Origin: Escherichia coli
Lineage (GTDB): Bacteria; Pseudomonadota; Gammaproteobacteria; Enterobacterales; Enterobacteriaceae
Length of the DNA stretch: 64,000 nucleotides
Strand: one strand, 5' to 3'
NCBI RefSeq assembly: GCF_024298765.1
Contig: NZ_CP101212.1
Under the pieces are notes generated by a model, which worked only from the letters and a program-made list of their open reading frames with translations, ran no database searches and was not told the DNA's origin. A program made the position numbers and the translations under genes. Shown here piece by piece: positions 1,263-31,782 of the stretch; positions within the stretch are counted from its first letter, which is position 1; each line of letters starts with the position of its first letter.

Positions 1263-2003
1263 TCACCTCAGGGGAGGCAGTGTACGCAGGATCTCCGCAG
1301 CATCCCGCCCGTCACCTGTGAAAGGCACTGCCAGCGTGGCAGCCATATCCAGTGCAAACACTCTGGTATAAACCTCCATCGAACGTGGATCCCTGTGACC
1401 AACCAGTGCCTGGATGACTTTCCGGGGCTGGCGGTGATAGAGCATGTGCATGATATAGCTGTGCCGGAAGGTGTGTGGTGTGACCGGAATCGAAAAGTGT
1501 ACTCCGTCAGCTTCGGCCCGTCTGACAGCCTGCTTCAGCCAGTTGCGCATGGTTTCGTCGGTCACGGCCCATAATGGTTCACGACGACGGGGCCGGGTGG
1601 TGATCATCCAGCTTTCCATCTGCCTGACATAGCTTATATCTGTCAGCGGAACCAGGCGCACTTCATCTTTTGGCGGGCGTCCGCGTCGCGCACGCACTTT
1701 TTCGGACAGGATCCGCACAAACGGTCTTACTCCATTCAGGTCAAATGATTCCGGCGTCAGCATCCGGGCTTCGCCAATACGCATTCCGGTATTCCAGAGG
1801 GTGGCGAACAGCATATGGTGACGCTGATCCGGCATATAGAAGAGAAGGGCACTCACTTCCGGGGCCAGCAGGTAGGCCGGTGTGGCCCCCGTGGAAGTGG
1901 CCATTCTTCTCAGGGAGAGCGCTGTTGCAAAATCCACCCCCGGCGCAATGGGTAACAGGGAGACGCGTTCAGGTGAATTCTGCAGGGGAATGACATTGTT
2001 CAT
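1263..2003 (-). CDS. int: Tyrosine site-specific recombinase/integrase associated with RepFIB
   Basis: 246 aa; C-terminal HTFRHSY...LVGH motifs typical of tyrosine recombinases; position next to RepFIB repA. Confidence 0.8.
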
Positions 2004-2685
2004 GAGTTATTTTTCACGTAGCACACGCACTGTTTATGGATACAGGTATTCTGACCTGAACGCCCGGATCCTTCCACGACAATAAATCGCAGCGCGCGGA
2101 TCCTTTTGTTTGATTATCACGCATTATTGCGGGTAAAACCAAATACATAAAGGCGCATTTTGCCGCTGGGATCCCGTCTTAAGCCAGTCATGGTGCGGGC
2201 TGAGGGCTGGTTTACCGTTTTTGGGAGAATTGGGGTAATGCCAGGACAGGCAGAAACGGAAAAAAAATCCTGCAGACGCCCTTAAAAGACAACTGAAAAT
2301 TTCTGACTCCATATTCCTCTGGTTTCAGACTGCTTAATCACATCATCAACCTGATACATAATAAACAGATTCTGTTCACAGAATGAACAATTAAGTAAAT
2401 AGTTAGATTATGCGAAAAAGTACAGATATTTCTCACCATCGTTATTGAATAATATGTCTTCACACAAACAATATTAATATTTTGAGTGTAAGCCCTGACT
2501 CAAAGAAAGAAATGTCTGTTTTCGGAATCAAAAATATATAGTTATCAAAATACATTAATTTCAAATTTGAAATTAATGTAAAACGATTTAGTAAATGTTA
2601 TGACATTATAAATCTACTCCTCCATGTTTAGAGGAGTATTTGCAGACTGGACGCTCTTATATAGTTACTTACCTTTATACATATT

Positions 2686-3594
2686 CTAACATAAGCATTT
2701 ACCAACCTTACAGGGAACAGACCATAGTAGTTTATATTTCCATTCAGGTCTGAATGCACCGATAGAATATATCATCTTTTTATTATTATCCTGACAATAC
2801 CTTCGTGCTTTATCTATATTCAGCCACATAAGGACACTTCCCGGACTTAGTTTCATACAATTCTCATCATTCAGAACTGCACCATTTGGAACGTCATAAT
2901 AAACATTACATGAGCTTTCAGATTTCAGTACTATATCAATAGCACACGGTTTATTATCCCAGAATAGCACATGGCCAAACATAAGTTCTCGTAAGTGAGA
3001 AATAAACATTAACAGATTATCATATTCGTAGCAAGGTAGGGTACCTCCAAACCGGGAATGAAAAAGTGATATATAAGAGCTGGATATTTCTTTATCGGAT
3101 AACTGGCTTATACACTTAATCTCTCCGCCATTCCTGATAAATCTCTGGATTTCATTTCGGCGAGTTTTTTCAAATTTAGGTGAAAAAGATTCCTTTATAA
3201 TACAATTTTGTTTTTTTCTGGCTATTTTCCATGTTGCATTGATAATATTTTGTTTATTTATAATTGATAATTTATTAGTTTTATCCGGAAAAAAACATCT
3301 TGCATGTGGGGAAAAAGGAATTAATACCTCATCAGATGAAAGAGGATAAGACCTTCTTGCCATTATCCCAATTTGTTTTCCATTGCACAGAAAATATGAG
3401 CCTTTGATATCACCATCTTTTTCATAGTGAAAAAAATCAAACTTCCAGTCATGATGTATCATAAAGTATGAAACAACATCCGGATGCATGTTTACACTAC
3501 CACCGTATTTTTCAAAAGTTTTTTTGTACGTTTCGAATGTAGATGGTTTCCAGGCCGTAATAATGCGCTTTATATTTTTAATTGACAAAGTCAT
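2686..3594 (-). CDS. mig-14: Mig-14 family protein (antimicrobial peptide resistance-associated)
   Basis: 302 aa AT-rich ORF directly downstream of hlyF, the arrangement known from ColV-type plasmids. Confidence 0.55.
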   Translation of the reverse strand: MTLSIKNIKRIITAWKPSTFETYKKTFEKYGGSVNMHPDVVSYFMIHHDWKFDFFHYEKDGDIKGSYFLCNGKQIGIMARRSYPLSSDEVLIPFSPHARCFFPDKTNKLSIINKQNIINATWKIARKKQNCIIKESFSPKFEKTRRNEIQRFIRNGGEIKCISQLSDKEISSSYISLFHSRFGGTLPCYEYDNLLMFISHLRELMFGHVLFWDNKPCAIDIVLKSESSCNVYYDVPNGAVLNDENCMKLSPGSVLMWLNIDKARRYCQDNNKKMIYSIGAFRPEWKYKLLWSVPCKVGKCLC

Positions 3595-3656
3595 ATCCTC
3601 GGCGTTTTTATATGTTATGAGTGCAACACCAACAATAATTCTGATTATGATAAATA

Positions 3657-4766
3657 TTATTTAAAATCAACTTCCATTTGTTGTTGAATTGAAAGGTGTT
3701 TTGTCGTTTCTATACAGTATTTAATATAATCAGTAAACTTTGGCGGTTTAGGCATTCCGATACTCAGTAGCTTGTCGTTACTGAAACAAACATTGAGCAT
3801 ACTGAACGCTCCATATAAACGAATGGCTTTTAACATAAGGCGTTCGTTACAGGGACCAAAAATATTTTTAAAATCATGACGGCTCATTGCCAGTATGTCA
3901 TAACTGACTTTAGTATATCTGTCTCCAACAGGATCACAGTTCAAAGCACGGGCTACAGCTTCGTCAATAGCAGAGAACGTCACACTACTTTCTTTACCTG
4001 CTGATATATGAACAATCTCACCATTAATTAACGAACTTTCAAGCAACATTAGCAATGCATCAGCACAATAATCTACAGGGATAACATCTATTTTATCATC
4101 CAGAGAGCACATAAATTTTTGCAACATTAACCCCATTCTGAATACCCAGAAAATACTGGTTGAAGGTAAGCACCCTAAACGACTGTGGCCAACAATAATT
4201 GATGGTCGGGCAACCAACAAAGGTAAATCAGGACACTGCTTACGCATCAGATATTCTATTGTTGCTTTTGAATGCGTATACTCCACTAAATGTTCACCTG
4301 TTTCTGATGAAGCAGACTCTTCCTTAACTAGCGACCCCGTATGAGGTGTACAAGACATAGCAGTACCAACATGAAGGAAGCGTTTCAGTCCTGCCACTTT
4401 TGCCATTCTTCTTGCAAAAGCAAGTGTACCTGTAACATTCACATTCCATATAAAAGGATTATTACCAAAAGAAGCTATAGCCGCACAGTTTATAACATGA
4501 GTGACTTCATCAAGACGAGGATCCATGAGAAAGGCTTCCGGATTATTTAGATCCCCAGGCAAGATGTTATCATTAGTTAATGCATGCAACCTTTCCTCAC
4601 AAACATTAAATTTACGCATATTTTCTTTAATTCTTTCCAGTCCCGCTTGTGGAGTAGGTGCTCGTACTAAAAGTAGCAAATTTATATTATTACAGTTATC
4701 CAGCAGCTTATCCAGGACCGCGCCACCAAGAAATCCTGTTGCACCTGTAAGTAATAACAATTTCAT
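3657..4766 (-). CDS. hlyF: HlyF, NAD(P)-binding SDR/epimerase-family protein
   Basis: 369 aa; N-terminal TGATGFLG Rossmann motif; position between mig-14 and ompT. Confidence 0.7.
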   Translation of the reverse strand: MKLLLLTGATGFLGGAVLDKLLDNCNNINLLLLVRAPTPQAGLERIKENMRKFNVCEERLHALTNDNILPGDLNNPEAFLMDPRLDEVTHVINCAAIASFGNNPFIWNVNVTGTLAFARRMAKVAGLKRFLHVGTAMSCTPHTGSLVKEESASSETGEHLVEYTHSKATIEYLMRKQCPDLPLLVARPSIIVGHSRLGCLPSTSIFWVFRMGLMLQKFMCSLDDKIDVIPVDYCADALLMLLESSLINGEIVHISAGKESSVTFSAIDEAVARALNCDPVGDRYTKVSYDILAMSRHDFKNIFGPCNERLMLKAIRLYGAFSMLNVCFSNDKLLSIGMPKPPKFTDYIKYCIETTKHLSIQQQMEVDFK

Positions 4767-20736: not shown

Positions 20737-21054
20737 CTATTTCCACTTCTTTTTCTTATTAATCGCTCCCCTAATCCACGCATTCATCTGCTCTACAGGC
20801 TCTAAAATATTTTTTCTGAGTACTGAGCACAAACTGCTCCATAAAAAACAGACCACAAGTTTGGGCATGATACTGATGTAGTCACGTTTTATTGTTTTCA
20901 TGAAGCTCTCTGCTATTCCATTACTCACCGGACTCCGCACCGCCGTGTTCTTCGATTTAAGTCCCAACATCCGAGCGAACTGGCGTGTTTCATTAACCCG
21001 GTAGTCAGAGTCAGCGGTCGAAAGACCTCCCAGGTAGCTACTCTGCATACCCAC
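20737..21054 (-). pseudogene. IS2-related orfB 3' fragment
   Basis: [43 protein letters not shown] matches the IS2 InsD region seen intact at 28684..29408. Confidence 0.5.
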
Positions 21055-21186: not shown

Positions 21187-22380
21187 TCAGGACAGGCGGG
21201 TAACTTTCTGTGGCCATGGATCAGGGAATACTCCACCCGACATCCACCACTGAATTTCTTCTTCAGTCAACAAGCAAAGGGATAAGGCATGTGTAAAATC
21301 ATTAACTTCAGTGGCATTGCCAATGATAGTCAACTGACAGCAGCGATCGCCAAATCGCCCAGAGGCTGTGTCGATGTGTCGCTGTAGCGCTGAACGTTCT
21401 TCACGAGTTAAATTATTGTCAGTATGTTCCAGTACTCCAGCTTTCCAGTAGCCAATGAGCGCCAGACTGATGCTTCCTGCTGACTGATTCCAGAGCAGGG
21501 CAAGATCATCTCTCCCGGGGAGCCAAAAAAAACCTTTACTGCGATAAACGCCCATGCCCATAAAGCGGTGACAGGTATCCCATAATCTTTGCGGATGGAA
21601 TGGCCTGTCGTCCCTGATGACGCGCCATATAAGTTCCTCATTGTTGCACGGAGTATCCATGTTTCCTACAAGTGCTTCCAGTTCACTGATGAGTAACTCA
21701 ACACGGTCAAAATTGTAGTCCGGGATCGCCAGTAATGTGCTCAGTTCAATATTTCCCCATGATACCGCGAGCACATCCACGGAGGGGTTAAGTGGGTGTA
21801 TGGCTTTTGCCACAGCGGAGATAATGTCAAAGGGCAGGCGGTCATTTCTGGTCAGCAGCAGCCTGTTGCAGAACATGATTTGCTCGGCCAGCAAATTCTC
21901 CAGGCCGCGTTTGTTATGCCGGAGATTTTCCTGAAGAGTGGGGATCAGTTTTTTCCCATCATTGTAATCTTCATGGAGCATGACAGTATCAACGAGTGTT
22001 AAAAACGCCTTCAGGCGTACACGTGAATGGCGACGCAGGTATTTGACCAGAGGAAGCGGATGACTGCTTCCGGAGGTTTCAATCAGCATCACATCCGGCT
22101 TGTTGTGATCAAGCAGGTGGTTAATTGCGAGATCCATCTTTTTGAGGCCTGCGGGGCTGCTGATGCTGTCTGCGGTGATACTTACGAAATTATTGTCTTT
22201 TGCATCTACAATATCTGTGTTGGCGATCAGCACGCCGTCCACATCCAGTTCGCTCATGTCATTGACTATGACAGAGACTGAAAGCTGTTTTTCGTGTGCC
22301 TGTATGAGCAGGTTTTTCAGCAGAGTGGTTTTCCCTGCGCCGAGGAAGCCATTGAGAATGATGACAGATGTTGTTTCCAT
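21187..22380 (-). CDS. CobW/COG0523 G3E-family P-loop GTPase (putative metallochaperone), divergent
   Basis: GFLGAGKTTLL Walker A, IETSG motif, CobW-like C-terminal domain; likely start at METTSV (22380) rather than 22494. Confidence 0.7.
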   Translation of the reverse strand: METTSVIILNGFLGAGKTTLLKNLLIQAHEKQLSVSVIVNDMSELDVDGVLIANTDIVDAKDNNFVSITADSISSPAGLKKMDLAINHLLDHNKPDVMLIETSGSSHPLPLVKYLRRHSRVRLKAFLTLVDTVMLHEDYNDGKKLIPTLQENLRHNKRGLENLLAEQIMFCNRLLLTRNDRLPFDIISAVAKAIHPLNPSVDVLAVSWGNIELSTLLAIPDYNFDRVELLISELEALVGNMDTPCNNEELIWRVIRDDRPFHPQRLWDTCHRFMGMGVYRSKGFFWLPGRDDLALLWNQSAGSISLALIGYWKAGVLEHTDNNLTREERSALQRHIDTASGRFGDRCCQLTIIGNATEVNDFTHALSLCLLTEEEIQWWMSGGVFPDPWPQKVTRLS

Positions 22381-23035
22381 ATCAGCAGTACACCAGTTAG
22401 TTAGCGAGGAAGGCGCTTGGTGGTACAAAGAGCATCCGGATTGAATCGCATAACGTCGACGGGAGTTGTTGTCGTTTTTCCTGTGAGGTCTCAACCTGCC
22501 ACAGAACGCACCGGATTTATTGGTATTTAGTCTCCATCAGCATAATTATCACCATTTTTATCTCCGGGGGAAGATTTGTTCTGAACAGGAGTGGGAGGTG
22601 TGACCTCCTGAAAGTAATTACAGATTGCTAGTTGTTGTATTTTTATTCGAATATGTCTCTTCGTATCAGTGATAGCACCTAGATAAAGTATATTCCGGGA
22701 GCGTTATCTGTTCTAGATATCAGAGAGTCAGTCATTTGTAAAAAAGAGAGCTGCATCATTCTATTTTTCCTGTCTATTCACCCTGTTGTCGTATCTAAAA
22801 GACATCCGTTCCGAGGATGTCGGGCACCCGTTCTGTACTAAGATACATAGCTTTTGGGTCTGCACTATTTGGAACCGACAGAAGTCTGTCTGTGATATCC
22901 GCATTTTTCTGTGTGCGATATATTCCGAAAAACTTCAAACCACTTAAAAGAGGTGTTTCCGGAGGATAAGTTCGACCAGGGAATAGTGTTTCCTGGTAAG
23001 TGTGGCGGAGCCAGTTCACCAGGAGTATCTTTCTT

Positions 23036-23072
23036 GGCACTGTTGCAAAGTTAGCGATGAGGCAGCCTTTTG
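23036..23072. mobile_element. 37-bp IS26 end fragment abutting the complete IS26
   Basis: ggcactgttgcaaagttagcgatgaggcagcctttt is the inverted IS26 end sequence. Confidence 0.55.
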
Positions 23073-23892
23073 GGCACTGTTGCAAATAGTCGGTGGTGAT
23101 AAACTTATCATCCCCTTTTGCTGATGGAGCTGCACATGAACCCATTCAAAGGCCGGCATTTTCAGCGTGACATCATTCTGTGGGCCGTACGCTGGTACTG
23201 CAAATACGGCATCAGTTACCGTGAGCTGCAGGAGATGCTGGCTGAACGCGGAGTGAATGTCGATCACTCCACGATTTACCGCTGGGTTCAGCGTTATGCG
23301 CCTGAAATGGAAAAACGGCTGCGCTGGTACTGGCGTAACCCTTCCGATCTTTGCCCGTGGCACATGGATGAAACCTACGTGAAGGTCAATGGCCGCTGGG
23401 CGTATCTGTACCGGGCCGTCGACAGCCGGGGCCGCACTGTCGATTTTTATCTCTCCTCCCGTCGTAACAGCAAAGCTGCATACCGGTTTCTGGGTAAAAT
23501 CCTCAACAACGTGAAGAAGTGGCAGATCCCGCGATTCATCAACACGGATAAAGCGCCCGCCTATGGTCGCGCGCTTGCTCTGCTCAAACGCGAAGGCCGG
23601 TGCCCGTCTGACGTTGAACACCGACAGATTAAGTACCGGAACAACGTGATTGAATGCGATCATGGCAAACTGAAACGGATAATCGGCGCCACGCTGGGAT
23701 TTAAATCCATGAAGACGGCTTACGCCACCATCAAAGGTATTGAGGTGATGCGTGCACTACGCAAAGGCCAGGCCTCAGCATTTTATTATGGTGATCCCCT
23801 GGGCGAAATGCGCCTGGTAAGCAGAGTTTTTGAAATGTAAGGCCTTTGAATAAGACAAAAGGCTGCCTCATCGCTAACTTTGCAACAGTGCC
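23073..23892 (+). mobile_element. IS26 (820 bp) with 14-bp terminal repeats GGCACTGTTGCAAA
   Basis: Both terminal repeats and full transposase read directly. Confidence 0.9.
23136..23840 (+). CDS. tnpA: IS26 transposase
   Basis: 234 aa from MNPFKGRHFQRDIILWAV...; identical protein encoded at 27322..28026. Confidence 0.9.
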   Translation: MNPFKGRHFQRDIILWAVRWYCKYGISYRELQEMLAERGVNVDHSTIYRWVQRYAPEMEKRLRWYWRNPSDLCPWHMDETYVKVNGRWAYLYRAVDSRGRTVDFYLSSRRNSKAAYRFLGKILNNVKKWQIPRFINTDKAPAYGRALALLKREGRCPSDVEHRQIKYRNNVIECDHGKLKRIIGATLGFKSMKTAYATIKGIEVMRALRKGQASAFYYGDPLGEMRLVSRVFEM

Positions 23893-23996
23893 CATCTAAC
23901 GCATAGTTGAGCGGCGGGCGCAGCCCGTCCGCTTGAACGCCGAGTTAGGCATCAGATGCCCTCGGCGCGGGTCGATGCACTTTTCGCACATGCCGC

Positions 23997-24785
23997 TCAA
24001 CGCAAGATTCTCTCAATCGTTGCTTTGGCATATCGAACGAACGCGGCCGTCTCTTCGACGCGCATTGCTAGGTCGTCGTCCTCGCTACCCAGGTACGCCG
24101 CGCGTGCCTTGCAGATGAGGGGCCGATGCTCGGCAGGCAAACGCTCCGATACCCATGCGGCAGCAACGTCCTTAGGAGCAATGAGACCAGTTGAAGCGCT
24201 GTACCAAATGCGAGCAAGAGCAAGAACGACGTTCCGCTCGTCACCCTTCCAATCCGACTCTGCATTCCACTGGGCAATAGTGTCGAAAAGCGCCTTGGAG
24301 AAATGCTCCTTCGGCACCGGCTCGAAAAACGTGGCTGCGGATGGGCCTAGAAGCGCAAGGCTGTGTTGCCTCGCCTTGGTCAGCAAAATCGCAAGATCGT
24401 GATCCAGAACGGCAGGCTCGAACGTTCCGGAAAGGATGTCGTGGCGGAGCCACTCACCGAACTGAAGCTCACGCCGCGCCGGATAGCGCCAAGGCACTAC
24501 TTCGCTTCGAGCGACAACAGTTAGCTCCAGCGGTCGCCATGTTCCGCCATCGCCTGGCGGTGATGAGACTTTCAGCAAATCGAGCATTAGCGCCTGCCGG
24601 AGCGAATCGTTAGGTGCGGCGCTGACGGTCACGAGCAAGTCTATGTCGCTGTCCGGCTTCAGCCCTCCATCGATCGCAGATCCGAACAGGTGGATTGTGT
24701 CCAGTGTCGCAGCCAGATGGCGCTCGATCACCGCGCGAGCGTGGGACAGCTGCTTGAAAACTTGTGCAGGGAAAAATTCACCCAT
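23997..24785 (-). CDS. aadA5: Aminoglycoside (3'') adenylyltransferase, AadA5-like cassette
   Basis: 262 aa nucleotidyltransferase with GS...DGGLKP..SDIDLL motif; second cassette after dfrA17. Confidence 0.8.
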   Translation of the reverse strand: MGEFFPAQVFKQLSHARAVIERHLAATLDTIHLFGSAIDGGLKPDSDIDLLVTVSAAPNDSLRQALMLDLLKVSSPPGDGGTWRPLELTVVARSEVVPWRYPARRELQFGEWLRHDILSGTFEPAVLDHDLAILLTKARQHSLALLGPSAATFFEPVPKEHFSKALFDTIAQWNAESDWKGDERNVVLALARIWYSASTGLIAPKDVAAAWVSERLPAEHRPLICKARAAYLGSEDDDLAMRVEETAAFVRYAKATIERILR

Positions 24786-24915
24786 GATGCCTAACGTTAA
24801 GTTCAGCGGCAGCTTTTAAGTTGCGGCTTTGTGGAATACTTTTGCGCAGCAAAACCACAAAGACGCGACTTAAAAGCTGTCCAAGGAGCGAAGCGACTGG
24901 TGCTGCAACGCATTG

Positions 24916-25389
24916 TTAGCCTTTTTTCCAAATCTGGTATGTATAATTTATATTAGACATAAAAAACTGTTCAAAAACCAAATTGAAATTCTCAGGCATT
25001 ATAGGGAATTTGATATCACCTTCGACTTCAACGTGAACAGTAGACAAATGAATTATATCTGCTTTTTCAATAAGGCTATTATAGATTTGACCCCCGCCAG
25101 AGACATATACATGATCTGTAACTTTTGATAGCTCTTTCAAAGCATTTTCTATTGAAGGAAAAACTAGGACGTTTTCATTTGAGCTTGAAATTCCGTTCTT
25201 TGACACTACTGCATATTTGCGATTTGGAAGAACACCCATAGAGTCAAATGTTTTTCTTCCGACAAGGAGCCATTGATTATATGTGAGCGCTTTAAAGAGT
25301 AGTTGCTCACCTTTTACTGACCACGGGATATCAGGACCACTACCGATTACGCCATTTTCTGACACTGCAGAAATCAATGATATTTTCAA
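24916..25389 (-). CDS. dfrA17: Trimethoprim-resistant dihydrofolate reductase, DfrA17-like cassette (TTG/GTG start)
   Basis: (M)[15 protein letters not shown]... about 157 aa DHFR; first cassette next to attI1. Confidence 0.75.
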
Positions 25390-25546
25390 TTTAACTCCCT
25401 TAATGGCTAACTTTGTTTTAGGGCGACTGCCCTGCTGCGTAACATCGTTGCTGCTCCATAACATCAAACATCGACCCACGGCGTAACGCGCTTGCTGCTT
25501 GGATGCCCGAGGCATAGACTGTACAAAAAAACAGTCATAACAAGCC
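25390..25546. promoter_or_regulatory. Class 1 integron attI1 and cassette promoter region
   Basis: Position between intI1 start and first cassette; not dissected base by base. Confidence 0.4.
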
Positions 25547-26560
25547 ATGAAAACCGCCACTGCGCCGTTACCACCGCTGCGTTCGGTCAAGGTTCTGGAC
25601 CAGTTGCGTGAGCGCATACGCTACTTGCATTACAGTTTACGAACCGAACAGGCTTATGTCCACTGGGTTCGTGCCTTCATCCGTTTCCACGGTGTGCGTC
25701 ACCCGGCAACCTTGGGCAGCAGCGAAGTCGAGGCATTTCTGTCCTGGCTGGCGAACGAGCGCAAGGTTTCGGTCTCCACGCATCGTCAGGCATTGGCGGC
25801 CTTGCTGTTCTTCTACGGCAAGGTGCTGTGCACGGATCTGCCCTGGCTTCAGGAGATCGGAAGACCTCGGCCGTCGCGGCGCTTGCCGGTGGTGCTGACC
25901 CCGGATGAAGTGGTTCGCATCCTCGGTTTTCTGGAAGGCGAGCATCGTTTGTTCGCCCAGCTTCTGTATGGAACGGGCATGCGGATCAGTGAGGGTTTGC
26001 AACTGCGGGTCAAGGATCTGGATTTCGATCACGGCACGATCATCGTGCGGGAGGGCAAGGGCTCCAAGGATCGGGCCTTGATGTTACCCGAGAGCTTGGC
26101 ACCCAGCCTGCGCGAGCAGCTGTCGCGTGCACGGGCATGGTGGCTGAAGGACCAGGCCGAGGGCCGCAGCGGCGTTGCGCTTCCCGACGCCCTTGAGCGG
26201 AAGTATCCGCGCGCCGGGCATTCCTGGCCGTGGTTCTGGGTTTTTGCGCAGCACACGCATTCGACCGATCCACGGAGCGGTGTCGTGCGTCGCCATCACA
26301 TGTATGACCAGACCTTTCAGCGCGCCTTCAAACGTGCCGTAGAACAAGCAGGCATCACGAAGCCCGCCACACCGCACACCCTCCGCCACTCGTTCGCGAC
26401 GGCCTTGCTCCGCAGCGGTTACGACATTCGAACCGTGCAGGATCTGCTCGGCCATTCCGACGTCTCTACGACGATGATTTACACGCATGTGCTGAAAGTT
26501 GGCGGTGCCGGAGTGCGCTCACCGCTTGATGCGCTGCCGCCCCTCACTAGTGAGAGGTAG
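25547..26560 (+). CDS. intI1: Class 1 integron integrase
   Basis: 337 aa, recognised as IntI1 ([44 protein letters not shown]...). Confidence 0.9.
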
Positions 26561-26737
26561 GGCAGCGCAAGTCAATCCTGGCGGATTCACTACCCCTGCG
26601 CGAAGGCCATCGGTGCCGCATCGAACGGCCGGTTGCGGAAAGTCCTCCCTGCGTCCGCTGATGGCCGGCAGCAGCCCGTCGTTGCCTGATGGATCCAACC
26701 CCTCCGCTGCTATAGTGCAGTCGGCTTCTGACGTTCA

Positions 26738-26762
26738 GTGCAGCCGTCTTCTGAAAACGACA
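26738..26762. repeat. Class 1 integron IRi (25-bp terminal inverted repeat)
   Basis: tgcagccgtcttctgaaaacgaca read directly. Confidence 0.5.
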
Positions 26763-27237
26763 ATGGAGGTGGTAGCCGAGGGTGTGGAAACACCCGACTG
26801 CCTTGCGTGGTTGCGGCAGGCGGGTTGCGGCACGGTGCAGGGTTTCCTGTTCGCCAGGCCGATGCCGGCGGCGGCCTTCGTCGGCTTCGTCAACCAATGG
26901 AGGAACACCACCATGAACGCCAATGAACCGAGCACCAGTTGCTGCGTGTGCTGCAAGGAAATCCCGCTCGATGCCGCCTTCACGCCGGAAGGGGCCGAGT
27001 ACGTGGAGCATTTCTGCGGGCTGGAGTGCTATCAGCGCTTCCAGGCGCGGGCCAGCACTGCGACCGAAACCAGCGTCAAACCGGACGCTTGTGATTCGCC
27101 GCCGTCAGGTTGAGGCATACCCTAACCTGATGTCAGATGCCATGTGTAAATTGCGTCAGGATAGGATTGAATTTTGAATTTATTGACATATCTCGTTGAA
27201 GGTCATAGAGTCTTCCCTGACATTTTGCAGGGAATTC
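26763..27237 (+). other. Tn21-type urf2/tnpM remnant and res site
   Basis: Sequence between IRi and the tnpR start includes AT-rich res-like region tgtaaattgcgtcaggataggattgaattttgaatttattgacatatctcg. Confidence 0.4.
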
Positions 27238-27269
27238 CATGACTGGACAGCGCATTGGGTATATCAGGG
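27238..27269 (+). pseudogene. tnpR: tnpR (Tn21-type resolvase) 5' stub cut by IS26
   Basis: atgactggacagcgcattgggtatatcagg encodes MTGQRIGYIR, then the IS26 end begins. Confidence 0.5.
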
Positions 27270-28089
27270 GGCACTGTTGCAAAGTTAGCGATGAGGCAGC
27301 CTTTTGTCTTATTCAAAGGCCTTACATTTCAAAAACTCTGCTTACCAGGCGCATTTCGCCCAGGGGATCACCATAATAAAATGCTGAGGCCTGGCCTTTG
27401 CGTAGTGCACGCATCACCTCAATACCTTTGATGGTGGCGTAAGCCGTCTTCATGGATTTAAATCCCAGCGTGGCGCCGATTATCCGTTTCAGTTTGCCAT
27501 GATCGCATTCAATCACGTTGTTCCGGTACTTAATCTGTCGGTGTTCAACGTCAGACGGGCACCGGCCTTCGCGTTTGAGCAGAGCAAGCGCGCGACCATA
27601 GGCGGGCGCTTTATCCGTGTTGATGAATCGCGGGATCTGCCACTTCTTCACGTTGTTGAGGATTTTACCCAGAAACCGGTATGCAGCTTTGCTGTTACGA
27701 CGGGAGGAGAGATAAAAATCGACAGTGCGGCCCCGGCTGTCGACGGCCCGGTACAGATACGCCCAGCGGCCATTGACCTTCACGTAGGTTTCATCCATGT
27801 GCCACGGGCAAAGATCGGAAGGGTTACGCCAGTACCAGCGCAGCCGTTTTTCCATTTCAGGCGCATAACGCTGAACCCAGCGGTAAATCGTGGAGTGATC
27901 GACATTCACTCCGCGTTCAGCCAGCATCTCCTGCAGCTCACGGTAACTGATGCCGTATTTGCAGTACCAGCGTACGGCCCACAGAATGATGTCACGCTGA
28001 AAATGCCGGCCTTTGAATGGGTTCATGTGCAGCTCCATCAGCAAAAGGGGATGATAAGTTTATCACCACCGACTATTTGCAACAGTGCC
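27270..28089 (-). mobile_element. IS26, inverted relative to the copy at 23073
   Basis: Terminal repeats at both ends; identical transposase. Confidence 0.9.
27322..28026 (-). CDS. tnpA: IS26 transposase
   Basis: Identical 234-aa product. Confidence 0.9.
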   Translation of the reverse strand: MNPFKGRHFQRDIILWAVRWYCKYGISYRELQEMLAERGVNVDHSTIYRWVQRYAPEMEKRLRWYWRNPSDLCPWHMDETYVKVNGRWAYLYRAVDSRGRTVDFYLSSRRNSKAAYRFLGKILNNVKKWQIPRFINTDKAPAYGRALALLKREGRCPSDVEHRQIKYRNNVIECDHGKLKRIIGATLGFKSMKTAYATIKGIEVMRALRKGQASAFYYGDPLGEMRLVSRVFEM

Positions 28090-28683
28090 TCTTTCTTATC
28101 CAGTTATACTGGATTTTATTAGATGATCACCCTACCCTGCAGCAGTACGCTGACGGTGTTTTTTTGGGAGAACCATTATGAATAACGTCATCTTTGATTG
28201 GTATTTATCTAGGCAAAAATTCATTCAACGTCCACTGCCAAGATGCAACAGGCAGAGTCCTTAACTGTCAGAATCCAAGTGCTCGAAATTATTCGAATTC
28301 CTTACTAATTCCTCCTACACAACTATTGTTATGGAAGCTTGCGAAGATGCTCACTATATGGCACGGAAATTTTCGGAAATGCGTCATAAAACAAAGCTAA
28401 TACCTCCTCATTTTGTCCAACCCTTCGTTAAAATTAATAAAAATGATTTCTTTGAGGCTGAAACCATATGTGAAGTTACATCAAGCCATCAATGAGATTT
28501 GTAGCATTAGGAGCTGAATCCCAGCAGAGGATTCCACTTTTCATCCGTCGTTGACAATGGCCTTGAAAAACGCCGTTACTCACCGTTCTCCTTCACGGTA
28601 ATACGCAGTTATAGTTGCAGAGCAATGTAATGGATCTTTTATATTAAGAAATTGTGTGAGTGGAGAGGTGCATAGATTTGCCC

Positions 28684-29408
28684 CTATATTTCCAGACACC
28701 TGTTATCACTTAACCCATTACAAGCCCGCTGCCGTAGATATTCCCGTGGCGAGCGATAACCCAGTGCACTATGCGGATGCCATTCGTTATAATGCTCGAA
28801 CGCCTCTGCAAGGTTCTTTGCTGCCGTTAACCCGTCTGGTTTGGGCATGACACTGATGTAGTCACGCTTTATCGTTTTCACGAAGCTCTCTGCTATGCCG
28901 TTACTCTCCGGACTCCGCACCGCCGTGCTCTTCGGTTCAAGCCCCAACATCCGGGCAAACTGCCGTGTTTCATTAGCCCGGTAGCATGAACCATTATCCG
29001 TCAGCCACTCCACTGGAGACGCCGGAAGCTCGTTGCCGAAGCGGCGTTCCACCGCTCCCAGCATGACGTCCTGTACTGTTTCACTGTTGAAGCCGCCGGT
29101 AGTGACCGCCCAGTGCAGTGCCTCACGATCACAGCAGTCCAGCGCGAACGTGACACGCAGTCTCTCTCCGTTATCACAGCAGAACTCGAACCCGTCAGAG
29201 CACCATCGCTGATTGCTTTCTTTCACGGCCACTCTGCCTGTATGTGCCCGTTTCGATGGCGGTACAGCAGGTTTTCGCTCAAGCAACAGCGCATTCTGGC
29301 GCATGATCCGGTAAACACGTTTGGCATTGATCGCAGGCATACCATCAAGTTTTGCCTGTCTGCGAAGCAGCGCCCATACCCGACGATAACCATACGTGGG
29401 CAGCTCTC
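28684..29408 (-). pseudogene. IS2 orfB (InsD) 3' part, separated from its 5' part (30667..30850) by IS3
   Basis: InsD sequence reads into the IS3 end at 29409. Confidence 0.75.
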
Positions 29409-29464
29409 TGAGCTTACCCAGCAATAGTGGACACGCGGCTAAGTGAGTAAACTCTCAGTCAGAG

Positions 29465-29773
29465 GTGACTCACATGACAAAAACAGTATCAACCAGTAAA
29501 AAACCCCGTAAACAGCATTCGCCTGAATTTCGCAGTGAAGCCCTGAAGCTTGCTGAACGCATCGGTGTTACTGCCGCAGCCCGTGAACTCAGCCTGTATG
29601 AATCACAGCTCTACAACTGGCGCAGTAAACAGCAAAATCAGCAGACGTCTTCTGAACGTGAACTGGAGATGTCTACCGAGATTGCACGTCTCAAACGCCA
29701 GCTGGCAGAACGGGATGAAGAGCTGGCTATCCTCCAAAAGGCCGCGACATACTTCGCGAAGCGCCTGAAATGA
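29465..29773 (+). CDS. IS3 OrfA
   Basis: 102 aa [31 protein letters not shown]... Confidence 0.85.
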
Positions 29774-30636
29774 AGTATGTCTTTATTGAAAAACATCAGG
29801 CTGAGTTCAGCATCAAAGCAATGTGCCGCGTGCTCCGGGTGGCCCGCAGCGGCTGGTATACGTGGTGTCAGCGGCGGACAAGGATAAGCACGCGTCAGCA
29901 GTTCCGCCAACACTGCGACAGCGTTGTCCTCGCGGCTTTTACCCGGTCAAAACAGCGTTACGGTGCCCCACGCCTGACGGATGAACTGCGTGCTCAGGGT
30001 TACCCCTTTAACGTAAAAACCGTGGCGGCAAGCCTGCGCCGTCAGGGACTGAGGGCAAAGGCCTCCCGGAAGTTCAGCCCGGTCAGCTACCGCGCACACG
30101 GCCTGCCTGTGTCAGAAAATCTGTTGGAGCAGGATTTTTACGCCAGTGGCCCGAACCAGAAGTGGGCAGGAGACATCACGTACTTACGTACAGATGAAGG
30201 CTGGCTGTATCTGGCAGTGGTCATTGACCTGTGGTCACGTGCCGTTATTGGCTGGTCAATGTCGCCACGCATGACGGCGCAACTGGCCTGCGATGCCCTG
30301 CAGATGGCGCTGTGGCGGCGTAAGAGGCCCCGGAACGTTATCGTTCACACGGACCGTGGAGGCCAGTACTGTTCAGCAGATTATCAGGCGCAACTGAAGC
30401 GGCATAATCTGCGTGGAAGTATGAGCGCAAAAGGTTGCTGCTACGATAATGCCTGCGTGGAAAGCTTCTTTCATTCGCTGAAAGTGGAATGTATCCATGG
30501 AGAACACTTTATCAGCCGGGAAATAATGCGGGCAACGGTGTTTAATTATATCGAATGTGATTACAATCGGTGGCGGCGGCACAGTTGGTGTGGCGGCCTC
30601 AGTCCGGAACAATTTGAAAACCAGAACCTCGCTTAG
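29770..30636 (+). CDS. IS3 OrfB (DDE transposase domain)
   Basis: 288 aa with DDE core; overlaps orfA in -1 frame. Confidence 0.85.
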
Positions 30637-30807
30637 GCCTGTGTCCATATTACGTGGGTAGGATCACTCCGATAACATGGTGTATACGGAGAAGCACATC
30701 CGTATCATCAGTGTGACGACTGCGGCGGCCATCCATCCAGTCATCGGTTCGTCTGAGAATGACGTGCAACTGCGCACGCGACACCCGGAGACAACGGCTG
30801 ACTAAGC

Positions 30808-31173
30808 TTACTCCCCATCCCCGGGCAATAAGGGCGCGTGCGCTATCCACTTTTTTGCCCGTCCATATTCAACGGCTTCTTTGAGGAGTTCATTTTCCAT
30901 CGTTTTCTTGCCGAGCAGGCGCTGGAGTTCTTTAATCTGCTTCATGGCGGCAGCAAGTTCAGAGGCAGGAACAACCTGTTCTCCGGCGGCGACAGCAGTA
31001 AGACTTCCTTCCTGGTATTGCTTACGCCAGAGAAATAACTGGCTGGCTGCTACACCATGTTGCCGGGCAACGAGGGAGACCGTCATCCCCGGTTCAAAGC
31101 TCTGCTGAACAATTGCGATCTTTTCCTGTGTGGTACGCCGTCTGCGTTTCTCCGGCCCTAAGACATCAATCAT
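30808..31173 (-). CDS. IS2 OrfA (InsC)
   Basis: [41 protein letters not shown]... Confidence 0.8.
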
Positions 31174-31782
31174 CTGTTCTCCAATGACTAGTCTAAAAAC
31201 TAGTATTAAGACTATCACTTATTTAAGTGATACTGGTTGTCTGGAGATTCAGGGGGCCAGTCTAGTGCACGAATCCTAGAGGCAGAATGTTTCTCCACAT
31301 GCTTGTGGAGAAACCGCCGCATTTTGCCCGTTCTGTACGATACTCCGTAGCCAGAGATAAGATATTCTGTTGCTGTATGCTACATACATTACACTATACG
31401 AAATCAGGTCTGTTCAATCAGTAAGGAAATAAACGGACAAACGTTATGTAACCCAGACAGAGATATATTGTCTGGGAAAATAGTGGCTTTTGTGGCGAAA
31501 ACTAGTAAAACAGCAACCCGAACCACTTGATGTGCATCGTTTTTGATTATTCCCGTATACTCTTGCAGAAGGAGTTCTCCGTCGGGCTACTGTCATGGTT
31601 AATGCGGGGAATATGGCGACAATACAACACACCTAAAAGAGTAATGGACAGATGAAGCGGTTTATTCATTTCCCATGATTCTGAGTACCTACCAAGTCTG
31701 AGTAACCACTTTTATACTTTTAATTTTCGTTCATTTAGCTATCGTTTAATTATTATCACATAGGATTCTGCCGTTTTTAACA

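Follow-up and report, generated by a model that had tools for sequence, protein, structure and literature searches.

An IS3 element nested in an IS2 upstream of iss on a ColV-type plasmid of Escherichia coli, and the surviving states of the locus

Nested Structure and Its Target Duplications

The 64,000-nucleotide stretch of Escherichia coli contig NZ_CP101212.1 (assembly GCF_024298765.1) analyzed here, referred to throughout as the window, carries at 28673-31264 (2592 bp) a minus-strand copy of the insertion sequence (IS) IS2 that is split by a plus-strand IS3 at 29409-30666. The nest is carried by an E. coli virulence plasmid of the ColV type, where it lies upstream of iss, a serum-resistance gene, and it almost certainly arose by two successive transpositions. 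The IS3 family, to which both IS2 and IS3 belong, is described as moving by a copy-out-paste-in route via a circular intermediate, and nested insertion sequences are routine. The nested insertion of two long-known elements is accordingly ordinary, and in many RefSeq plasmids its fragments already carry annotation; the added value lies in the full series of locus states, a microhomology scar, and evidence of gene conversion between IS2 copies.

The proposed course of events would begin with an IS2 of a subfamily whose right end is TA-3' instead of CA-3', inserting on a ColV-type IncF plasmid, in non-coding sequence that precedes iss by about 520 bp, and duplicating GTGCA. An IS3 would then have inserted into that IS2 at codon 61 of orfB, duplicating GAG (CTC on the plus strand), and the composite would afterwards have been inherited vertically with the plasmid lineage. 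The parts of the structure are as follows.

28668..28672, no strand: left copy of the IS2 target duplication GTGCA, read directly; the empty site has a single GTGCA
28673..29408, minus strand: distal 736 bp of IS2 (IS2 positions 596-1331), by gapless alignment to K-12 IS2A
about 28673-28713, minus strand: right terminal repeat of IS2 (IRR), by inverted repeat scan
29406..29408, no strand: left CTC of the IS3 target duplication (IS2 positions 596-598, GAG in the IS2 orientation); one copy in uninterrupted IS2
29409..30666, plus strand: complete IS3, 1258 bp, with 3 differences from K-12 IS3B/IS3D and terminal repeats at both ends
30667..30669, no strand: right copy of CTC, read directly
30670..31264, minus strand: proximal 595 bp of IS2 (positions 1-595), by alignment to IS2A
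about 31223-31264, minus strand: left terminal repeat of IS2 (IRL)
31265..31269, no strand: right copy of GTGCA, read directly and by comparison with the empty site

The annotated copies IS2A (NC_000913.3 381260-382590), IS3B, and IS3D of K-12 MG1655 served as references; K-12 IS3A was not used for the ends, being annotated at 1255 bp with the first three bases absent. A sequence-only reading of the window had described a 1258-bp IS3 within the orfB coding region of IS2, with CTC on each of its flanks and a total span equal to IS2 plus IS3 plus 3 bp. All of these statements hold: the inner element is 1258 bp long, the interruption falls in codon 61, CTC is read at both IS3 junctions, and the outer span of 28673-31264 adds up exactly (1331 + 1258 + 3 = 2592 bp). 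The alignment to reference IS2 and IS3 copies proposed there as a check gave the same boundaries, with no displaced ends and no gaps.

When IS3 and one CTC are removed, the rejoined IS2 is 1331 bp long and aligns without gaps to K-12 IS2A (15 mismatches, 98.9% identity), and because the two parts rejoin gaplessly the nesting is not a chance arrangement. The host element is thus restored exactly, and it is also present in uninterrupted form at the same locus in plasmid pVE-V11-M_1, from which the rejoined IS2 differs by one mismatch, both being flanked by the GTGCA duplication. That mismatch is at IS2 position 652 (G versus A) and gives E80K in the broken orfB. Uninterrupted IS2 at this site contains only a single CTC copy, reading ...ATCGGAGAGCTGCC... 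on the IS2 strand. The IS2 parts on either side of IS3 are halves of one element and not two copies, so that the structure is not a compound transposon. RefSeq annotation of identical plasmids lists a partial IS2 transposase, an intact IS3 transposase with programmed frameshift, and a second partial IS2 transposase, the IS2 pieces being called partial pseudogenes by PGAP.

The GTGCA duplication directly outside both IS2 ends had gone unmentioned in the sequence-only reading. To examine it, an empty site was built in silico by deleting IS2 and one GTGCA, and this hypothetical sequence was found as one contiguous piece in other plasmids. Plasmid NZ_CP054228.1 has such an empty site, and its two blocks of homology with the window overlap by exactly 5 bases, GTGCA; the empty-site plasmid L007 contains a single GTGCA, with a block overlap of exactly 5 bp. 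Because the blocks overlap by exactly GTGCA, the boundaries of IS2 are fixed independently of any reference IS2. The terminal repeats of IS2 are imperfect and were picked up as an inverted pair in a repeat scan of the window.

Both elements show the features expected of their kind. The IS2 has the length and collinearity of the reference, orfA and orfB with a -1 frameshift site, a DDE (rve) core, and a 5-bp duplication, as does the control IS2A in K-12 (ATTAC/ATTAC, 5 bp); the direct repeat of IS2 has been tied to a 5-bp spacing (PMC3299598). The IS3 has 1258 bp, TGA...TCA termini, imperfect repeats, overlapping orfA and orfB with a -1 frameshift (AAAAG), and a DDE transposase, and its 3-bp CTC duplication has counterparts in K-12 IS3B (ATC/ATC, 3 bp) and in an independent chromosomal nest, L014 (AGC/AGC). 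Against K-12 IS3B and IS3D it shows 3 differences over 1258 bp (99.76% identity): T>G at base 4, in the left terminal repeat, a synonymous change at base 200, and a change at base 1214 giving K285Q in OrfB.

States of the Locus and Order of Events

Prevalence was counted in 5426 complete E. coli genomes, with the results below.

Empty site: 129 genomes
IS2 at this site, in any form: 477 genomes
IS2::IS3 at this locus: 124 genomes (query of 300 bp of flank, 736 bp of IS2, and 300 bp of IS3)
IS2/IS3 left junction: 126 genomes (left-junction query)
Scar from IS3 loss at this site: 3 plasmids

Uninterrupted IS2 was sought with the rejoined IS2 and 60-bp flanks, a query sized so that IS3-interrupted copies could not be joined, and it was found at exactly this site with up to 99.9% identity, one copy differing at a single base. 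An earlier figure of 314 genomes, obtained with the whole composite as query, was rejected as too high, since the search merges IS2 and IS3 pieces that are separate but lie within about 1.9 kb, as in the chromosomal nest L014; nests of that type probably account for many of the extra matches. Short junction queries can be inflated in the same way by places that hold the two pieces.

Since IS2-only counts exceed those of IS2::IS3, IS2 alone is the common state and the nest a derived sub-lineage. The relative order that had been proposed from the letters alone is borne out, since each stage (empty site, uninterrupted IS2, and IS2::IS3) is found at this exact locus. No finding contradicted the nested insertion.

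Three observations nevertheless weigh on the other side. Firstly, the uninterrupted same-site copies could in principle be precise-excision revertants and not ancestors; these copies outnumber the composites about 3 to 1, and the closest of them has the ancestral G at IS2 position 652, the composites examined having A. Secondly, the variant IS3 end TGAGC, produced by the change at base 4, had no exact match in metagenome contigs. Thirdly, no second copy of IS2 or IS3 is present in the 64-kb window, so that recombination between copies, described below, is seen only in relatives.

Two other origins were considered. An IS2::IS3 cassette might have formed elsewhere and been copied into a resident plain IS2 by homologous recombination or gene conversion, and such a route has precedents, as IS2-IS2 gene conversion occurs in this plasmid family, where it appears to have carried the IS3 scar into a second IS2, and an independent IS3-in-IS2 nest exists on chromosomes. 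However, in the chromosomal nest IS3 sits elsewhere in IS2 (positions 999-1001) and is flanked by AGC instead of CTC, and the IS2 halves of the window are identical to the same-site uninterrupted IS2 apart from position 652, with no visible mosaic boundary. In addition, the left junction was found in 126 genomes versus 124 for the locus itself, meaning that this position of IS3 in IS2 is essentially confined to this locus, and the cassette origin is very improbable. An assembly artefact from mis-joined repeats deserves still less credence, close to none: although insertion sequences are classic causes of misassembly, dozens of complete plasmids, assembled independently and originating in several countries and hosts, share at 100% identity a 2792-bp segment that takes in unique flanks, flank, IS2, and IS3 occur in one piece in 124 complete genomes, and the exact duplications and derived scar are biological signatures that no assembler would create. 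Two successive transpositions thus remain the preferred account.

Effect of the Insertion on Both Elements

The reading frames and frameshift sites of the two elements are located as follows.

30808-31173, minus strand: IS2 orfA/InsC, 100% identical to K-12 InsC
30850-30856, minus strand: A6G frameshift site of IS2, starting at IS2 position 409
29474-29773, plus strand: IS3 orfA, its product OrfA identical to that of K-12
29770-30636, plus strand: IS3 orfB, with Pfam rve, rve_2, and HTH_21
29736-29740, plus strand: slippery AAAAG of IS3

The point at which IS3 interrupts the IS2 orfB comes before the DDE core and about 190 bp past the A6G frameshift site. The proximal IS2 fragment, matched by Pfam HTH_Tnp_1, retains the promoter, the left end, orfA, the A6G site, and the first 61 codons of orfB, and the Pfam domains HTH_21, rve, and rve_3 fall on the distal fragment, in an open reading frame at 28684-29424. 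Because IS3 separates the promoter, orfA, and frameshift site from the rve/rve_3 DDE core, the OrfAB transposase cannot be made, and this IS2 is unable to transpose autonomously. The inactivation claimed in the sequence-only reading therefore stands, given the split of the Pfam domains, the position at codon 61, and the PGAP pseudogene calls. OrfA (InsC) is fully intact, both IS2 ends are still present, and OrfA could still be expressed. IS3, judged by the integrity of its sequence, is probably still active, since its reading frames, frameshift site, and both ends are intact.

The composites in L001 and L013 also have the G at base 4 of IS3 (window 29412). With the adjoining flank, this G completes a 5-bp palindrome, AGCTC (29402-06) and GAGCT (29410-14). 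The same-locus composite in L013 (NZ_CP182283.1) has an IS3 annotated as frameshifted, and the record of composite plus flanks is about 44 bp shorter than expected; at position 200 its IS3 agrees with K-12, unlike that of the window, which reads G there.

Loss of IS3 by Microhomology Deletion

The same-site IS2 in plasmids pN66a, N58, and N63 is 1334 bp long. On the IS2 strand it reads ...GGAG-TGATCCTACCCACGTA-TGGTTATCG..., the inserted bases being the first 16 of the IS3 right end. In the composite of the window, two copies of an 8-bp microhomology could account for this scar.

29393..29400, no strand: TACGTGGG (CCCACGTA on the IS2 strand), copy in IS2, 5 bp outside the IS3 left end
30651..30658, no strand: TACGTGGG, second copy, at bases 9-16 of the IS3 IRR (right terminal repeat) and 1258 bp away from the copy in IS2

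An in silico deletion between the CCCACGTA copies of the composite matches the pN66a IS2 at 1333 of 1334 bases, the sole mismatch being the known polymorphic base at position 652. As the simulated deletion reproduces the scarred IS2, the pN66a-type plasmids descend from IS2::IS3 by microhomology deletion: IS3 was lost between the repeat in its right end and the one in the adjacent IS2, restoring an in-frame IS2. With a net gain of 3 bp the scarred element is in frame (GELPT to GVILPT), and its PGAP annotation is that of an intact IS2 transposase, so that on the evidence of its sequence the inactivation of IS2 has been reversed in nature through the loss of IS3. The scar occurs at 100% identity in exactly five plasmids. 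Loss by microhomology excision has been reported for IS3-family and other copy-out-paste-in elements (bioRxiv 10.1101/2023.06.07.543989).

Gene Conversion and Inversion Between IS2 Copies in Related Plasmids

In CH436 and pF247-1 the scar belongs to another IS2, one that is flanked by ATCAT and situated upstream of cvaA, the gene for colicin V export. The usual occupant of this cvaA-upstream site is an ordinary IS2 of 1331 bp, likewise with the ATCAT duplication (L027, L035, L036), and the site is empty, with a single ATCAT, in L030 and L032. The scarred copy there keeps the end features of the resident (32A, 42T, 43T, and terminal CA), and from position 239 to at least 1239 it has the bases of the window IS2 lineage, scar included; this combination of resident ends and foreign interior indicates that the scar reached the cvaA-site IS2 by gene conversion between IS2 copies. 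Transposition of the repaired IS2 to the cvaA-upstream site was rejected, given the resident unscarred IS2 with the same ATCAT and the resident ends that were kept. Taken together, the locus may preserve the natural history of one insertion sequence that was killed and revived, with the repaired allele then spreading to another IS2.

Further exchanges are seen among relatives. In L029 (JAXRGV010000189.1) the order is iss - IS2 - cvaA, a single IS2 joining the iss-side flank to the ATCAT flank of the cvaA site, which is the product expected from an inversion between two inverted IS2 copies. The same-site IS2 in pMS1170_2 and pVTB777v-1 contains a patch of seven differences at 777-876, five of the seven being shared with the IS2 of pAPEC-O2-211A-ColV. 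The suggestion that the dead IS2 still offers homology for recombination is thus supported in relatives, through IS2-IS2 gene conversion and IS2-mediated inversion, but not in the window itself. A 146-bp IS2-like fragment at window 20859-21004, about 92% identical to the pAPEC-O2-211A IS2, lies near an ISNCY pseudogene about 7.7 kb left of the nest (about 2.6 kb in plasmids without the IS26 block described below).

Variant Right End of IS2

The right end of IS2 (28673-28674) is TA-3', through C>T at IS2 position 1330, instead of the canonical CA-3'. Every same-site copy examined has the TA end, and CA is found in IS2A and in the IS2 copies of L008, L014, and pF247-1. The IS2 IRR has been described as the exclusive donor end, terminating in CA-3', with cleavage-domain mutations abolishing circle formation (PMC3299598). 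In exact-pattern scans, the TA end together with a C at IRR base 27 was also found in a 34-bp solo remnant, which occupies an unrelated site on the chromosomes of 364 complete genomes. Since both changes recur at this second site, the TA end is a trait that predates the insertion, belonging to an IS2 subfamily that, by this comparison, inserted at least twice, and not local decay. It thus appears compatible with past insertion, and this variant is no ground for excluding the element from IS2.

The proposal that IS2 is dead in trans as well, through its TA-3' donor end, was rejected as stated, the variant end being present at the unrelated chromosomal site. The 34-bp remnant adjoins a DUF1076 gene (loci L017, L020, L021).

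Choice of the IS3 Target

The IS2 sequence adjoining the insertion (CTGCCCACGTA) matches bases 6-16 of the IS3 right repeat at 10 of 11 positions, the best such match in IS2. An equal score for likeness to the inverted repeat is reached in about 4% of random 40-nt windows, and the targets of two further IS3 copies, those of the chromosomal nest L014 and of K-12 IS3B, do not score above background. Targeting of IS3 to this repeat-like sequence would therefore be a weak lead and not a finding. PMC7986276 cites targeted IS911 insertion next to repeat-like sequences. It is doubtful that both halves of a combined account hold, namely that the IS3-repeat-like sequence in IS2 attracted IS3 and that the later loss was an aborted copy-out, with a strand switch at the microhomology, and not slippage.

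Plasmid Context

From its first base onward, the window is collinear with pF247-1, a plasmid of the ColV/ColBM type, and with NZ_CP062870.1. Its gene order comprises MacB- and TolC-family efflux genes, an IS200C remnant, an ISNCY pseudogene, a CobW-family gene, IS2::IS3, iss, Rz/Rz1 remnants, and iroBCDEN. The idea that IS2 had landed in a decayed IS110-type transposase gene was dropped, as there was no Pfam match and nothing annotated by RefSeq at the site.

Two more IS2 placements upstream of iss are seen in other plasmids (L008, pAPEC-O2-211A-ColV; L024, pF247-1 21336-22666). One of these copies adjoins window 28586, with 22824-23035 and 28090-28585 missing, and the other adjoins 28653 and 31433. 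Neither copy is flanked by a target duplication and both end in CA, and these placements suggest candidate IS2-associated deletions.

A 5054-bp block at window 23036-28089, flanked by an 8-bp direct repeat TCTTTCTT, is absent from L001 and L007. It contains two inverted 820-bp IS26 copies (23073-23892 and 27270-28089), with a 37-bp IS26 end fragment (23036-23072) abutting the inverted IS26. Between the two copies are an aadA-type adenylyltransferase, a dihydrofolate reductase, an EAL/DUF3330 fragment, and a tyrosine recombinase of the Phage_integrase family that is presumably IntI1, the integron integrase.

Significance and Comparison With Known Systems

A search of the literature on ColV plasmids yielded no specific description of this IS2::IS3 structure. 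Its junction is stable and can mark lineage among ColV-type plasmids that bear iss, where it singles out a subset (124 of the 477 genomes with IS2 here), and the locus is a clean worked example for ordering IS events, all intermediates surviving in public data. The scarred copies mean that inactivation of one insertion sequence by another is reversible, and 'dead' copies still take part in the gene conversion and inversions that reshape virulence plasmids.

Compared with K-12 IS2A, the IS2 of the window has the same length (1331 bp with IS3 removed), A6G site, imperfect terminal repeats, and 5-bp target duplication. However, it is interrupted at orfB codon 61, and its right end reads ...TCTA-3', with a C at IRR base 27, where that of IS2A reads ...TCCA-3'. 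The IS3 shares with K-12 IS3B and IS3D an identical OrfA, the AAAAG site, the TG...CA ends, and the 3-bp duplication, but its left repeat begins TGAGC and theirs TGATC. The closest parallel to the nest is L014 (NZ_CP098858.1 chromosome, locus 1499-4090), an independent case in which IS2 is split into two pseudogene fragments by an IS3 in orfB, in the same relative orientation and with a clean 3-bp duplication. That nest differs in its IS2 position (999-1001), its duplication (AGC), its canonical TGATC IS3 end, and its chromosomal location.

As regards the loss of IS3, the nearest known systems are the loss of ISApl1 from Tn6330 and the IEE-stimulated excision of IS629, which are near-precise losses at microhomologies (bioRxiv 10.1101/2023.06.07.543989). 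The pN66a-type loss is equally well explained by plain replication slippage, no role of a transposase or of IEE being evident from the sequence, but it resembles those systems in its small scar and in its endpoints, an 8-bp repeat with one copy in the IS end and the other in the adjacent donor DNA.

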